A stretch of 64,000 nt of DNA from Heterodontus francisci (taxonomy: Eukaryota), in assembly GCF_036365525.1 (NCBI RefSeq), contig NC_090372.1, forward strand, positions 44,764,246 to 44,828,245, given 5' to 3'. The notes under the pieces are model-generated. The model saw only the letters and a list, made by a program, of their open reading frames with translations, was not told the origin of the DNA and did no database searches. Shown one piece after another: positions 1 to 62,289 of this stretch (positions are counted from its first letter, which is position 1; each line of letters opens with the position of its first letter). Position numbers and translations under genes: made by a program.

Positions 1-659
1 TGATTAACTTTGTATCTGCTCAATTACTACAGCACTGATTTTTAAGTGTCTCGAGGCCCATTGATGGAGAAACATTCCTTTAATTTTGGAAAATGTACCT
101 ATACCAACTATTGCCATTGTTGTACACAGCGCGGAGTCTCTAGTTGTGTAGCTGGGAGCAACAAATTGCATCATAGTTCATATATTGAAACCTTTTGTAA
201 AACATTGGGGAGAAGACTGTTGGGTTCAATATTTTCCACTCTTGCTACCAGCCACAAACAGATGCAGTTGCAATAACAAACAAAATTGGCTAAGAATACA
301 CAGTAAGTCTGCCAGCATCTTAATGAACAATGATGGGTAAATGTTTTGGAAACACCTTGATTCTGTTCAGTATTTTAATTTGTGGTTTTGACAACACTTT
401 TATCAAGCTTGCATTCTCCATAGTGATAGATCTTTTATAATGAAAGGTAAATCATTGTGTCAGCCATCTGTTCCTCAGGTGTTGATTGATTGATATAGGT
501 ATAAAATTAGAGTCAACCTGTCTGGATCTGGGACACGAATATCCACTCCACATTACTTAACATGGTATACTTGATGCTATGTTTTGTGCAATTGAGATTA
601 GCTATATTTTGATGAGGGAGCAGTGATGCAGACTTGTTGTCTGGCAGGTGGAGACAGAA

Positions 660-810
660 ATTACTCTTTTCCTTTCCCCTCTTTTGCCCTCAGCATTTCC
701 TGCTAATCTACCTCTCCCATTTCCCCCTCTTCTGCCCTTCTCATTTGCACCACTTCTACCTTTCTCATTTCCCTCTCATACCCATTCCTCTCCGCCCCCA
801 ACCCCAAACT
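660..810. repeat. Pyrimidine-rich degenerate tandem repeat (about 45-bp unit, about 2 copies)
   Basis: Repeated ctacct(c/t)tc(c/t)catttccc and ccctctt(t/c)tgccct segments. Confidence 0.55.
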
Positions 811-1250
811 CAGAAACTAGTTGGTTGTCAGGGTTATGTTGACAGGTCTGTGCAGGGAAAATGCTGCAATATTTACCAATTATGCATAGCTCAACAAAAT
901 TGTTTCCATTCCTAGAATTTCAAACCTATTGAAGAAACCATTGCACTAAACTAGCCATAGTGGAGAATTGAAGGCAGAATACTTTGATTTGATATCACAT
1001 TCTTCTCTACAGAATGTTTTTGTAATGAGTGCTAATGAACAACAGGTTTTGTTTGAAAATCTGGAAATGAAATGTGTTGCAGCTGTTTGACGGTACAACA
1101 ACTTTGCTCACTGACCAGTATTTTACAGAACTAGTTTTGTAACCTTGAGTAAAATAAAAGCAAAATACTGTAGATGCTGGAAATCTGAAATAAAACCAAA
1201 AAGTGCTGGTAATGCTCAGCAGGTTTGGCAGCATCTCTGGAGAGAAGCAA

Positions 1251-1289
1251 AGTTAATGTTTCAGGTCAGTGACCTTTCATCAGAACTGG
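1251..1289 (-). ncRNA. Minimal type-I hammerhead ribozyme motif (PLE pLTR), stem III decayed
   Basis: Minus strand reads CCAGUU-CUGAUGA-AAGGUC ACU GACCU-GAAAC-AUU-AACU. Confidence 0.7.
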
Positions 1290-1554
1290 AAAAGGTTAGA
1301 AATGTAATAGATGTGTCTGCCCACTTTTCTTCATGTTTTGCTTTTGGCTAGGGCTTTTATTATTGTCATTTAACACCCTCTCCGCACGAATGCTTTGTAT
1401 TCCACCACACCATTTACACACTCTTTGTCTTTGCCCCATGACCTCCTTGTCAGTTATTCTCTGTGACCCTGTCCTATCAACATCTTCCCATTTGTTCCCT
1501 TTGCCCCACCCCCACTTTATTTGCTTTAAACCTATTACATTTCTAACCGTTGCC

Positions 1555-1727
1555 AGTTCTGATGAAAGGTTGATGACCGAGTTCTTGTACCGTCAAACAG
1601 CTGCAACACATTTCAATTCCAGATCTTCAAACAAAACCTGTTGTTCATTAGCACTCATTACAAAAACGTTCTGGAAAGAAGAATGTGATATAAAATCAAA
1701 GTATTCTGATGACCTGAAACGTTAACT
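1555..1727 (+). ncRNA. Hammerhead ribozyme motif with a 136-nt insertion in loop II
   Basis: AGUU-CUGAUGA(1559-1565)-AAGGU...[insert]...GACCU-GAAAC-GUU-AACU(1727). Confidence 0.65.
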
Positions 1728-1899
1728 TTACTTCTCTCTCCACAGATGCTGCCAGACCTGCTGAGTATTTCCAGCCCATTTTGGTTTTATTTGTAACCTT
1801 GAGCATCGCTAACAGAGGCAGATGGTTCATCAGGTTTTTCATTGGCTGTTTATAAATGAGAATCAGAACAGACTCGGTTTGTTATTACATTTAGCTTTT

Positions 1900-1926
1900 T
1901 ATATATATATATATATATATTATATA
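1900..1926. repeat. (TA)n microsatellite
   Basis: Direct dinucleotide run. Confidence 0.9.
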
Positions 1927-2651
1927 CACAGCACGAGATATTTCAAGGACAGGTTGTGGAAGAACAGTGGGGGAAAATTTGAACCCTTTGCCACTTGTGG
2001 TCAAAAAATAGTGAAGTTTTTTTGGAAATAGTAGGCCTGCAGATTATTCGAGTCCAAACTGTTATGGAATTGTCTAGTTTTCAAAATGTAGCAAACACAA
2101 GAAAATGATCTGAAGGTGGGTGTGGACCATAAACCATGTTTGGAGTGCTGTACTGTTCTTGCTGTTTGGCTGAGCTGCATTGCGTTCTGTTGTTTCAGTA
2201 AGAGTTCATCCTTACTTTACAGGCCTGCCTTCAGCAGCACATGTACCTTCAGAAGCAGCTCTTTCTAGCCAGCTGAGTACAGATAAGTCACATGAGTGCA
2301 AAGGATTGGAACAGAGTAGAGGAAGTGTTCCTCTGCAACCAGCTGGTGCACTTCTGATATTGCTGGCCAGTTTGTATTTCCCTCTTCTCCCTCACCTTCC
2401 TCTAATATCCGAGAGGTCAGGGGTCGATTTGTGCAGGCGCTGTTGACTTTCAAATATTGCACGCACAGCTGTATTAAAGTTACATTCATGACTTTGGAGT
2501 AACCTTCATATCTGTGGATCATTTTTTGTTGAATGGGACCAGCAATATAAGAGGAACGGATTGTCCTGCGAGTGCACAATTGCAAGTTGTTTTGTAATAT
2601 ATGTCAAACATATCAGGAATTCAGTAATGATTGATTATTGATACAGTAAAG

Positions 2652-3000
2652 AGAAGAACTTACATTTATAAAGCAGCTTTCATGACCTCAGGACATCCCA
2701 GAGCACTTTACAACCAAGGAAATACTTTTGAAGTCCAGTCACAGGCTGCCATGTTTCCTACATTACAACAGTTTGCACACAGCAAGGTCCCACAAACAAC
2801 GATGTGATAATGACCAGAAAATCTGTCTGAGTGATGTTGGTTGAGGGATAAATAGTGGCCATGGGACCAGGGAGGGCTCCCAGACTCCTCTTTGAGCAGT
2901 GCCATGAGATCATTTACATCCACCTGAGAGGGAAGATGGGGCCTCGGTTTAATATCTCATCTAAAATATGGCACATCTGACAGTGTAGTTCCCACTCAGT
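2652..3000 (-). mobile_element. DeuSINE (SacSINE1/AmnSINE1-like) SINE
   Basis: Reverse complement of the family seen at 34615-35075: Deu-domain-like core and L2-like tail. Confidence 0.7.
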
Positions 3001-6000
3001 AATTCATGTTGGATAAACACTTTTCTTAGTAAAGGATATTGCTCAAAAACACCCTTACCAATTATCTTGGCTTCAATAAATTTATACTGAAAAATTTAAG
3101 AGCCTCTGTTCAATGCATTATTGTCAACAAAACCTACATGCCTCAGTATCCTGCTGGATGAATAGGCCACCCACTATTATCTGAAAATACTTCCTTGTGA
3201 GCTTCTTGAAAGGGCTGCCATCATGCTTTCGGTTGTGGTGTTGTTATGAAGCAAACAAAAGCAAAAGCAAGGTCTATTTTATAGAAACATCTGTAGCAAT
3301 GTGGTAATGGTCGTTAAGTGTAGTGAATTGTCCCAATAAAGGCTGCCAATTGTGCAGAGGCTGTTAGCAAGCCTGTTGAAGAATGCAGTAGCTTGTTTCG
3401 TCTATATCCTTGCTTCTGTTGCAGAACGGTACTATAGTTAACTGCAGCCTGTTTTGAGTGGCACTGTAATTTCTATTGATTTGGTTAGCAGGCAGTGAGA
3501 TGTGCCTACCCTGACAAAAGGACCAAAACACAATCCAGTTTCATGATTATGTTTTAAGCTTCCTTGATGGTGGGTCCCATGTTACTTCTAAACTGACTTG
3601 ATTTGCTTGGCAATTGACACCAATGAAGGATGTTGCAAAGCTTTAAGGCTGGAACAGTTCTTTAATTTATACAAAATTTCAAGTCCAAGCTTCTGTTTTC
3701 TTCCACTTTATAAAATGGATAATTCTGATTCCTCTTTCCTCCTGTCCCCATAGCTGTTGGTAAATGCAGCTGTATGATGCTGAGCAATGCAAATTTACAA
3801 GGATGCTGGATCTGACTCCCGCTGGAATGTTCCAGGTTAGTTGATCCAGTCATTAGGAAGTGAAGTGGAGAGGAGTAGGGCAGCTGGCTTCAGTGTCCCT
3901 GTGCTAGGGAGAGGAAAAAGCTATTCTGGGTTCTTGTGCCACATTGGCAAGTTCACCCAATAATAGTGTTCCCTTGGTCAAGGTACTGAAGATTGTTGGC
4001 TTCTGTGGCCAACATGAGGCACTAAACCTCAGAACACATGGCAAGGAAAATAGATATTTTTAAACTAGTTTTACGATTGGAAAGAGAAGTTTTTTTTAAC
4101 CTTAAGTAACCTGTTGTATGACTGGTTTGGGGGAAAAAAAAATCTTTGCAGGGAGCCTAAAATAAAACCTAAAATGTTTGCGTTGAGTGAGTGTGACTGT
4201 TTTTAAAAATTAGCTATAATTAAAATCACTTCCAGGCACATTTTTTCAGAATCTACAGTTTGCCACATTGGTTAATCATTTTGCGAACCAGTGAATCCTC
4301 TGTGGTGACAGTGAAGGCTCAAGAGCTCTCTCTGGTGGCGGAGGTTAGAGTTTCGCAAGCTCTGTCAAGTAATGGTGGGCATACTTTTGCCAGAATAGAT
4401 GATGATTGTTCTGTGCTCGAGTCCCGATCGATCTTCAAGTGTTCCTGAACTAGAGTCCATAACAGGTCTCAGGACAGTGCAGGAACTCCTGCACAAGGTG
4501 GGCAATATGTCAGGTTGTGATCTTACTAGTACAGTGATGGGTTTGTATGTTCTCCCCAGCATTATGAACCTTGACTGATCTTCAGGGAGCAAGCAGTGTT
4601 TTAGGAACTTGGGCAGGTCAATCAGCACTGTTCTGACAACTCTTAACCAGTCATGGAATGATGATGACAGTTCCAGCCTTTTTCAAATTGCTTCAAGGTT
4701 GTCCTATAAGTAATCTGAAACCCAGTAGTGAACCACCAGTACACAGCTGGTTTTCAAAGTAGTCTTGTTTGTAGCTTCTCCCTCCTGCTTTTGAACCACT
4801 CTCAACTCTGATCTACATGGCACTGGTGGCCAAAAACCTGGTGGCTGCTGTCAGCTCAGCTGCTGCAACTCATGATAGTACTGAAGTGATTGTAAGACTC
4901 ACTTGCTTATGCTGTCTCCTAGTAATCATTGCAAGCTATTGAGGGCTGGAGAGCTTTTGTTTGAAGCTACCCATGTATGCATGTGTCTGACATGCTGATG
5001 AATGTACAGTTAAAATATTTTAGTACTTCCCCTCTTTACCTCCTCCCCTTCCTCAGTCCTCCCTAGTGACCATAAGCTTCAGTGCAGGTGCAGTCTATCT
5101 TATAGAATTTAGATGGCTAATGCTATGTTTTTGGTCACTGCTATCTTTTTAAAAAAAAAAGTAATTCCAGCTCTCGCTTGACTAACTTTCTTCTCTCCTT
5201 AAAGATGTTGTCTCCTTGCTGCGCTGTCTTTTCACAGACACCTGTAATCTGCTGCCAGCTCACCCCAAGAGGCCTTTATTTGTTTGTGTTCGGCACTACT
5301 CAGCAAAGCCTGGCCATAATCACCATGAGGGTTACTAGGCAGCGATCAGGAATAGGAACCTGGGCTAGATCCACCTCATCCCCACATCCCCATACTTACA
5401 GCCCAATCAAAGGTACTGAGGTCTGTTGTAGAATCTGCGCTGCCATTGTGCTTACAGAGAAAGAGAACTGGATTGAGCTGCAGTCAAACTTGAGATCTAC
5501 CTGGTCTGTATGGCATAGCTGCTTGTTGTATCTGCTGACCTGACTTTCATTGCCAGCACCATTTTCTAGGGACAGGAAAGTAAACTCGGAGGTTACTTTT
5601 TATCGCCTTTTGGAAACTTGCCAAAATAGTTGGATTTCCCTTATGTTTGCTCTTTGGCATTTCTATTGTAAGTGGTAGCAGAATTGCATGGTCAGCTGCT
5701 GTTTGAAACTATAGTTGGAGTATAAAACGGAAATGAGAGGAGGTATAGTTTTGAGAATACTTACGCAACAGATTCATAGGATGCAAGTGTGTGTCTTCAA
5801 GCTCACTCAAAATGAGTGTACTGTCTCAGCCATGCCAACAGTCATGTGAAGCTAATCATGCTCCACAGGAAAGCAAAAAATCAGTATGTGCGATACACAT
5901 GGCTAGTCACATTTAGTTCCAAAAAGTTTTGTTACATTTATAGAGCAAGGCTGGAAAAGTACTGGGAATTTGTCATTCACTCTCACAGTTGGTTGGGGAT

Positions 6001-6583: not shown

Positions 6584-62289
<55,706 letters not shown>

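Follow-up and report, generated by a model that had tools for sequence, protein, structure and literature searches.

Penelope-like elements (PLEs) that bear an endonuclease (EN+ PLEs) have been described as having a target-site duplication (TSD), an inverted 5' arm, and a tail at one end only (PMC3846280, PMC8557442, PMC11167929), with a CX2-5CxxC linker ahead of the endonuclease serving as the criterion for the Neptune/Nematis type (PMC8557442). According to PMC11167929, the late steps of Penelope integration have yet to be validated. Local inverted copies and insertions of nearby DNA are known from other settings. In four-point template switches (Löytynoja and Goldman 2017, PMC5453318), a switch and a return leave behind a reverse-complement fragment; the switch-point order 3-2-1-4 and its mirror, 1-4-3-2, together make up 31% of high-confidence human-chimp switch events, and sequence alone cannot separate a 3-2-1-4 event from a mirror made in the other direction. 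At yeast breaks, fold-back insertions are primed by ~10 nt of imperfect inverted homology, captured through 0 to 5 nt (median, 2 nt), and up to ~150 bp long (PMC11724301). L1 templated insertions are typically <250 bp, come from within 15 bp of the site, and have been attributed to the cDNA as it grows (10.1101/2024.08.27.596794). The class of event reported here is already known from this template-switch, break-repair, and L1 work, and the locus adds a well-preserved instance; our literature search, which largely excluded subscription papers, found no report of flank-derived inserts within PLE hammerheads.

The window analyzed here is a 64,000-nucleotide stretch of Heterodontus francisci DNA. 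An original prediction, made from the letters, proposed that it contains a Penelope insertion whose hammerhead loop II had captured an inverted copy of the flanking host DNA. The features to which we refer below are as follows.

975-1103, plus strand: source of the insert; single-copy host intron DNA that predates the element, with 2 genome matches, present in organisms B and C
1108-1116, plus strand: 9-nt match, TCACTGACC, to the family stem-loop II, 5 nt past the source end
1136-1149, plus strand: left TSD, 14 bp; organisms B and C, whose site is empty, have one copy
1150-1310, minus strand: inverted pLTR arm with the long tail; carries an uninterrupted hammerhead motif with loop CAC and its core at 1277-1283
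1311-1570, plus strand: 5'-truncated 3' end of the PLE, up to the stem II 5' arm, from paralog alignment
1555-1570, plus strand: hammerhead left-side strands (stem I at 1555-1558, core CUGAUGA at 1559-1565, AGGU at 1567-1570), by inspection
1571-1579, plus strand: left junction filler, TGATGACCG, which replaces the loop CAC; elsewhere in window positions 1-3200, its first 8 nt are present only at 1707-1714
1580-1708, minus strand: inverted copy of 975-1103, 129 nt; its last 2 nt overlap the second TGATGACC
1709-1789, plus strand: rest of the right pLTR arm, starting with one extra A and ending at the short-tail end point
1712-1727, plus strand: hammerhead right-side strands (ACCU at 1712-1715, GAAAC at 1716-1720, then GUU, and stem I at 1724-1727), by inspection
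1790-1803, plus strand: right TSD, 14 bp, a perfect repeat of the left copy
6584-7601, plus strand: JARID2 (Jumonji) exon with JmjN, from Pfam and PDB matches; end approximate
9241-9810, plus strand: GIY-YIG end, including a C-x4-C-x2-C linker, of a longer related copy; Pfam GIY-YIG

The exon at 6584-7601 matches JmjN in Pfam (1.8e-13) and Jumonji residues 303-652 in the PDB (E = 1.9e-130). An earlier JARID2 exon, located through short motifs, lies ~48 kb upstream of the window; two further exons expected between the located ones were searched for and not found. Since the element sits between two plus-strand JARID2 exons, it lies in an intron, with its right-arm hammerhead motif in the sense orientation of the gene.

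A repeat finder and BLAST, applied to the window, aligned 1580-1708 with the reverse complement of 975-1103 at 122 of 129 positions with no gaps (E = 9e-54); extending the pair to 975-1104 gives 122/130. The original prediction, which paired 977-1104 with 1579-1706 at 8 mismatches in 128 nt, had its counts right and took in one terminal mismatch. The source, which it placed ~30 bp before the left TSD, ends 32 nt outside it, at a distance of 470 to 600 nt from the insert. A genome-wide DNA search with 940-1135, of a kind that passes over very common words, matched two places in the 6.0-Gb genome, namely, the source and the insert, as expected for a local templated event. None of the 29 closest paralogs fetched contains the insert. 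The idea that this region might be a multicopy PLE repeat fails on both counts. The insert is, then, the reverse complement of nearby, preexisting DNA, and its source is neither a dispersed repeat nor part of the element.

Contigs from three sequencing runs of two samples, belonging to two other species (organisms B and C), span the orthologous locus. They cover 895-1149 and then match 1804-1833 at 24 of 30 positions, so that the source is present, the element is absent, and the TSD is single, which is the empty site for which the prediction had called. Because the orthologous sites are empty in two other species, the 14-bp TSD (TTTGTAACCTTGAG at 1136-1149 and 1790-1803, identical at 14 of 14 positions) is proven. 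These contigs show the source to be older than the element, which entered an empty site. Over 895-1149, the outgroups differ from the window at 31 of ~255 sites and by gaps of 1 to 3 nt, which marks the source as noncoding. The outgroups also polarize the seven differences between source and insert: the insert changed at positions 991, 1007, 1009, and 1058; the source changed at 1015 and 1099, where the insert retains the outgroup base; and 1067 is ambiguous. Since an assembly error cannot carry outgroup bases, the insert is an old and real copy. Taken together, the alignments support an insert that was copied once, in inverted orientation, from neighboring single-copy intron DNA and lies inside a dead Penelope-like insertion.

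The identification of the host element as a Penelope insertion is borne out by the TSD, the inverted 5' pLTR, the tail at one end only, and the pLTR hammerhead motif, all of which are present and the first three of which form the structure described for EN+ PLEs. The element body has 4,388 candidate relatives in the genome, the best of which are 88 to 91% identical. Many paralogs share the short end point of the right arm, and others reach the left arm's long tail. The left arm (1150-1310) differs from the majority of 29 paralogs at 6 of 140 sites. The insert-bearing copy itself has no open reading frame. In a related copy within the window (9241-10303), however, the GIY-YIG end at 9241-9810 matches Pfam GIY-YIG with an E value of 2.7e-4 and 21.6 bits (just below the cutoff of 22.6), has two cysteines between GIY and YIG as in EN+ PLEs, and is followed by a pLTR 71 to 85% like that of this element; the copy designated L063 below retains a decayed end of the same GIY-YIG frame. 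The linker of the related copy fits a family of the Neptune/Nematis type, and the Poseidon clade was dropped once this translated linker was set against the criteria of PMC8557442. In sum, the locus resembles Neptune/Nematis-type EN+ PLEs in its TSD, inverted 5' arm, one-arm tail, pLTR hammerhead, and (in the related copy) GIY-YIG domain with a CX2-5CxxC linker, and differs from them in having no open reading frame and in carrying a flank insert. It also differs from the host-DNA capture described for Adineta elements, which takes the form of a 0.9- to 1.5-kb spacer or a whole gene rather than a local inverted copy in a ribozyme loop.

Other retroelement sequence is present in the window. Pieces of the same Penelope family lie at 272-320, 9241-10303 (plus strand), and 38844-38982 (plus strand), and reverse transcriptase (RT) and AP-endonuclease fragments of other retroelements lie at 11969-13018, 16004-16393, and 18454-20666. 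The open frame at 2174-2443 had no match in Pfam or the PDB.

The junctions retain more detail than a simple insertion. The 8-mer TGATGACC occurs at 1571-1578 and 1707-1714, with a 2-nt overlap with the source at 975-976; both the duplicate and this short microhomology had been pointed out in the original prediction, which read the 8-mer as bracketing the insert. The letters are there, but the 8-mer is not the family loop. The majority loop of the family is AGGT-CAC-TGACCT, as it is in the element's own left arm and in the closest paralogs, and exact 25-mers with the CAC loop occur 5,864 times genome-wide, compared with none for TGA or CGA. The left half with a TGA-type loop occurs twice, at this locus and at L034, a more diverged copy that is interrupted by another sequence and has no inverted match in its 3 kb. 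As no intact copy carries the TGA-loop 25-mer, TGATGACC was not there to be duplicated, so that a TSD-like reading of the 8-mer is ruled out and the repeat is better described as junction filler. Relative to the majority, 3 nt were lost, while the left junction gained 9 nt of filler and the right junction 1 nt. A single switch and return do not explain all of these letters; the 9+1 nt of filler remain, and extra slips are needed.

Just past the source end, the 9-nt TCACTGACC at 1108-1116 matches the family stem-loop II; in fold-back orientation, 5 nt pair exactly, or 8 of 9 nt pair overall. In random stretches, the chance level is 0.45% for an exact 9-nt match in either orientation and 1.4% for an 8/9 fold-back match. 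We regard this sequence as a likely priming microhomology, judging from the letters at the source end. The outgroups differ from it at 3 or 4 of the 9 positions, and the match may therefore not have had its present form at the time of the event. In addition, priming at 1108-1116 predicts a left junction of CAGTGAGCAA, whereas TGATGACCG is observed; the junction letters do not retain the match, and an extra rewriting step is needed. For the right junction, either a 2- to 3-nt loop overlap or a 5-nt core overlap plus a slip across the hairpin would suffice to join the source end to the element. Slips from the core TGA to the loop TGA exist in other copies (e.g., C30:16803536) and could build this junction.

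Copies interrupted at loop II or at a control site were surveyed with sequence patterns. With strict anchors at loop II, all 64 copies with 20 to 250 nt between the anchors were compared with 1.5 to 2.5 kb of flank: two carry local inverted inserts (this locus and L063), versus 16,712 intact copies, and most of the 64 were judged by eye to be partial tandems, neighboring copies, or other mobile elements. A relaxed pattern at loop II gave one capture (this locus) among the 50 of 54 matches analyzed, versus 31,230 intact copies; of the other four, three were already among the fetched copies and one is a 44-nt tandem. At a control site just 3' of the hammerhead, two captures (L252 and L178) were found among the 100 of 107 matches analyzed, versus 53,458 intact copies. 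The first control site was dominated by satellite: no local inverted insert was found among the 22 analyzed of its 3,875 matches. Local captures run at roughly 1 in 10,000 to 30,000 per 10-nt site, as seen through patterns that miss diverged copies, longer inserts, and sources beyond ~2 kb. The expectation that other copies might hold flank-derived inserts at the same position was borne out once, in loop II of L063, but loop II was not enriched, two captures lying beside it. Loop II as a capture hotspot was accordingly set aside: without this locus there is no excess, the counts being too small to exclude a modest one.

L063 (G000:C11:74315617-74315706) holds in loop II an inverted copy (49/50) of a source ~1.36 kb downstream, with 10 nt of the hairpin duplicated and overlaps of 4 and 2 nt. 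L252 (G000:C23:8120924-8121175) holds inverted upstream flank (179/180) whose source lies 480 to 659 nt upstream and is in part repeated in 16 other fetched loci. Its order is a head-to-head element, a near-perfect 79-nt arm-junction palindrome, 180 nt of inverted flank, and the original right arm; it is a two-step fold-back after integration. L178 (G000:C2:203311867-203312370) is an inverted duplication (385/386) of the arm plus ~300 nt of downstream flank, centered on a head-to-head element. In L063, L252, and L178, the capture postdates the element (Fisher P = 0.017, 0.004, and 0.019, respectively), as gauged against arm divergence or the subfamily majority, which may overstate element age. 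The 173-nt loop II insert of L060 (G000:C10:46373849-46374050) has no source within its 10-kb region.

Several other arrangements were observed in the course of this survey. Tails of other mobile elements, judged by eye, lie in or next to loop II in L039, L047, L057, L061, L069, L135 to L138, L160, L194, L202, and L205 to L207; similar insertions at the control site mean that no preference for loop II is shown. In loop II of L077 (C20:31847492), the hammerhead core is briefly folded back on itself, and L043, L045, L046, L074, L078, L082, L085, and L095 contain many tandem re-copies of 30 to 70 nt around the hammerhead. At L218 (G000:C7:12784314-12784770), a 168-nt direct local duplicate (97%) lies 170 to 337 nt downstream of the interrupted copy. 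A tandem satellite whose 68-bp unit comes from the pLTR part 3' of the hammerhead lies at G000:C3:214.29-214.33 Mb and C4:0.40-1.72 Mb (L124 to L131); most of the 100 matches listed among the 3,875 at the first control site belong to it.

At the locus itself, the element differs from the majority at 20 of 477 sites, and source and insert together carry 7 differences in 258 site-branches. The resulting insert/element age ratio is 0.65 (95% confidence interval, 0.23 to 1.59; Fisher P = 0.41). The divergence between the arms (10/117) is likewise not different from that between source and insert (7/129; P = 0.45). The likelihood ratio of "same age" to "some time later" runs from 0.39 to 1.72 depending on the counting rule, the lowest value being obtained with indels counted.

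We think it probable that the 3' end of the plus strand folded back on its own upstream DNA at stem-loop II, copied the flank, and rejoined the element. Under this proposal, the plus-strand DNA end would have stalled or broken at the hammerhead stem-loop II and folded back onto its own strand, with priming through the stem-II-like sequence at 1108-1116; copying would have run from 1103 to 975, with release after 129 nt and capture back into the element through 2 to 3 nt of microhomology. The polymerase would have been DNA templated, rather than an RNA-templated first-strand RT. The two junctions are unequal in microhomology, with 5 nt exact (or 8/9) for the beginning of the plus strand and 2 nt for its return; the longer match at the beginning, together with the three younger captures, means that a DNA-templated repair or replication switch fits better than a first-strand RT jump. 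The original prediction had offered template jumping by the PLE RT during integration and polymerase theta-style repair of a later break; the local templated capture common to both holds, and the first-strand RT jump fits less well.

The switch points at this locus are ordered 3-2-1-4, and all four cases in the family follow this order or its mirror, the class that arises when a 3' end folds back on its own strand. As in the four-point switches of Löytynoja and Goldman (PMC5453318), there is a switch with a return and a reverse-complement fragment in the same point order; however, those events are short and confined to tens of bases, whereas here 129 nt came from 470 to 600 nt away with 9+1 nt of filler. 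Yeast fold-back inversions (PMC11724301) may be alike in their ~10 nt of imperfect inverted priming, ~2-nt capture, and length of up to ~150 bp, but they have a loop of 41 nt and inserts mostly <14 bp, whereas the loop here would be ~450 nt and contain a competing inverted arm. Further observations count against the fold-back. A single-stranded plus strand should first fold on the 47 nt of left-arm homology, yet the insert is not preceded by a copy of the arm; L063 has its longer microhomology (4 versus 2 nt) at the junction opposite to that predicted for own-strand priming; and the source end is close to the insertion site, as in the L1 templated insertions that are ascribed to growing cDNA.

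The fold-back may have taken place in the second-strand or repair stage of integration, when a single-stranded cDNA template with a folded hairpin and a resected left flank would be at hand, or at a later break or fork stall at the inverted-repeat locus. We hold the two timings to be about even. If the event was a fold-back, the closeness of the source to the TSD and the skipping of the left arm favor the finishing stage of integration, while the three younger captures and the point estimate of age favor a later event. A more specific version, in which the locus is a frozen intermediate of Penelope second-strand synthesis (i.e., a stall at the cDNA hairpin, skipping of the RNA-paired left arm, priming on the resected flank next to the TSD, and return), seems to us unlikely.

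Resection from 5' ends at a break would remove the left-flank bottom strand. That is the very template needed if, during target-primed reverse transcription, the first-strand RT paused at RNA stem II, copied the left-flank bottom strand from 975 to 1103, and returned to the RNA. We give this RT jump a low probability. In its favor, 32 nt separate the source from the left TSD, a closeness to the target also seen in L1 templated insertions; the ages of insert and element are not significantly different; a 5-nt core overlap (TTCTG) is available in that direction; and a PLE protein has been shown in vitro to cut both strands and extend them (PMC11167929). On the other hand, the starting microhomology would be only 2 nt unless a prior slip is assumed, and an 8-nt back-step on the RNA needs the TGA loop, which no intact copy and one other left-half match carry, against 5,864 copies with CAC. 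The three other captures, being younger than their elements, also speak against it. As for the L1 parallel, both cases have non-element DNA of <250 bp from beside the site in a copy with an inverted 5' part; the L1 inserts are within 15 bp and made at integration, whereas the present insert is derived from 32 nt beyond the TSD and lies in the 3' arm, not at the inversion point.

We are similarly doubtful of a later switch that ran the opposite way or crossed between strands, in which a bottom-strand end copied the flank ahead of it or polymerase theta-type end joining acted in several short rounds. Polymerase theta scars have iterative filler and short overlaps, which the repeated junction filler and 2- to 5-nt overlaps resemble, and this polymerase typically copies stretches shorter than 129 nt from 470 to 600 nt away. 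The present copy is thus long for it, and a single fossil event permits no assignment of an enzyme. The point estimate of age, younger than the element, and the likelihood ratio for simultaneity with indels counted suit a later switch, and the two orientations are indistinguishable from the letters; against it, the 9-nt stem-loop match would then fall at the finishing junction rather than the priming one.

The hammerhead motif was assigned by inspection against PMC4209133. As the original prediction had it, the core and the AGGU/ACCU stem II arms are intact at 1559-1565, 1567-1570, 1712-1715, and 1716-1720; the minimal core and the strands of helices I and II are present, with all 8 stem pairs Watson-Crick. 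An Rfam scan of the window at E values up to 1 gave no matches, and the hammerhead was thus not detected in this way. The further proposal of a hammerhead with an expanded, host-derived loop holds for the letters but not for the predicted fold. The predicted probability of stem II across the insert is ≤0.002 in five sequence extents, compared with 0.88 to 0.93 in an intact paralog. Forcing stems I and II costs 3.3 to 4.8 kcal/mol when intact and 10.6 to 11.6 kcal/mol with the insert, rising to 48.5 kcal/mol in the whole element and 117.5 kcal/mol with the source included. Over larger extents, the predicted partner of the core is the left arm and that of the insert is the source; in JARID2 pre-mRNA, long stems would be expected between insert and source and between the two arms. 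The hammerhead fold is therefore predicted not to form, the motif being disabled rather than usefully enlarged. Minimal PLE hammerheads have a short helix I, a long helix II with an unpaired 5'-end base, and a rudimentary palindromic helix III, as does this motif, except that its helix II is cut to 4 bp, closed by ~141 nt, and predicted to be unfolded.

A functional enlarged loop, whether as an active or regulated hammerhead or as an RNA stem affecting JARID2 splicing or editing, is in our estimation highly improbable. The motif, on the sense strand of a JARID2 intron, retains every core letter and both arms of stem II, and the predicted probability of pairing between insert and source is near 1. 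However, alongside the predicted loss of stem II, the insert has accumulated substitutions about as fast as the dead element (4 to 5 in 129 versus 20 in 477), and the element and insert are missing at this locus in two other species. Even an intact single minimal PLE hammerhead motif had no cleavage detectable in vitro, according to PMC4209133, and PLE ribozyme mutants were without effect on insertion in vitro according to PMC11167929.

An assembly artifact, or an insert that is part of a Penelope subfamily with a secondary match to the flank, is scarcely credible: the left junction was seen in none of the contigs listed and the same-sample contig across the right junction has a short side of 27 nt, below the 31-nt bar for a bridge, but in that contig, at single-copy depth (10 versus 8.9 to 9.8), the 27 nt of element tail continue into 71 nt of insert that carry 4 of its alleles, two of the 7 substitutions between the copies have the outgroup base in the insert (one of them 5 nt from the left junction), and the two genome matches, the insert-free paralogs, and a source that predates the element argue against a subfamily.

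By itself, the locus matters little: it is a probable repair or replication scar in a dead intronic element, and its value is that of a specimen. The four cases in the family suggest generic fold-back where hairpins and inverted arms occur, rather than a capture system specific to the ribozyme. With tens of thousands of anchorable copies, a full survey of the family could separate captures made at integration from later ones. If this insert were indeed a second-strand intermediate, inserts from >30,000 copies would map the resection length, strand order, and stall sites of Penelope integration.
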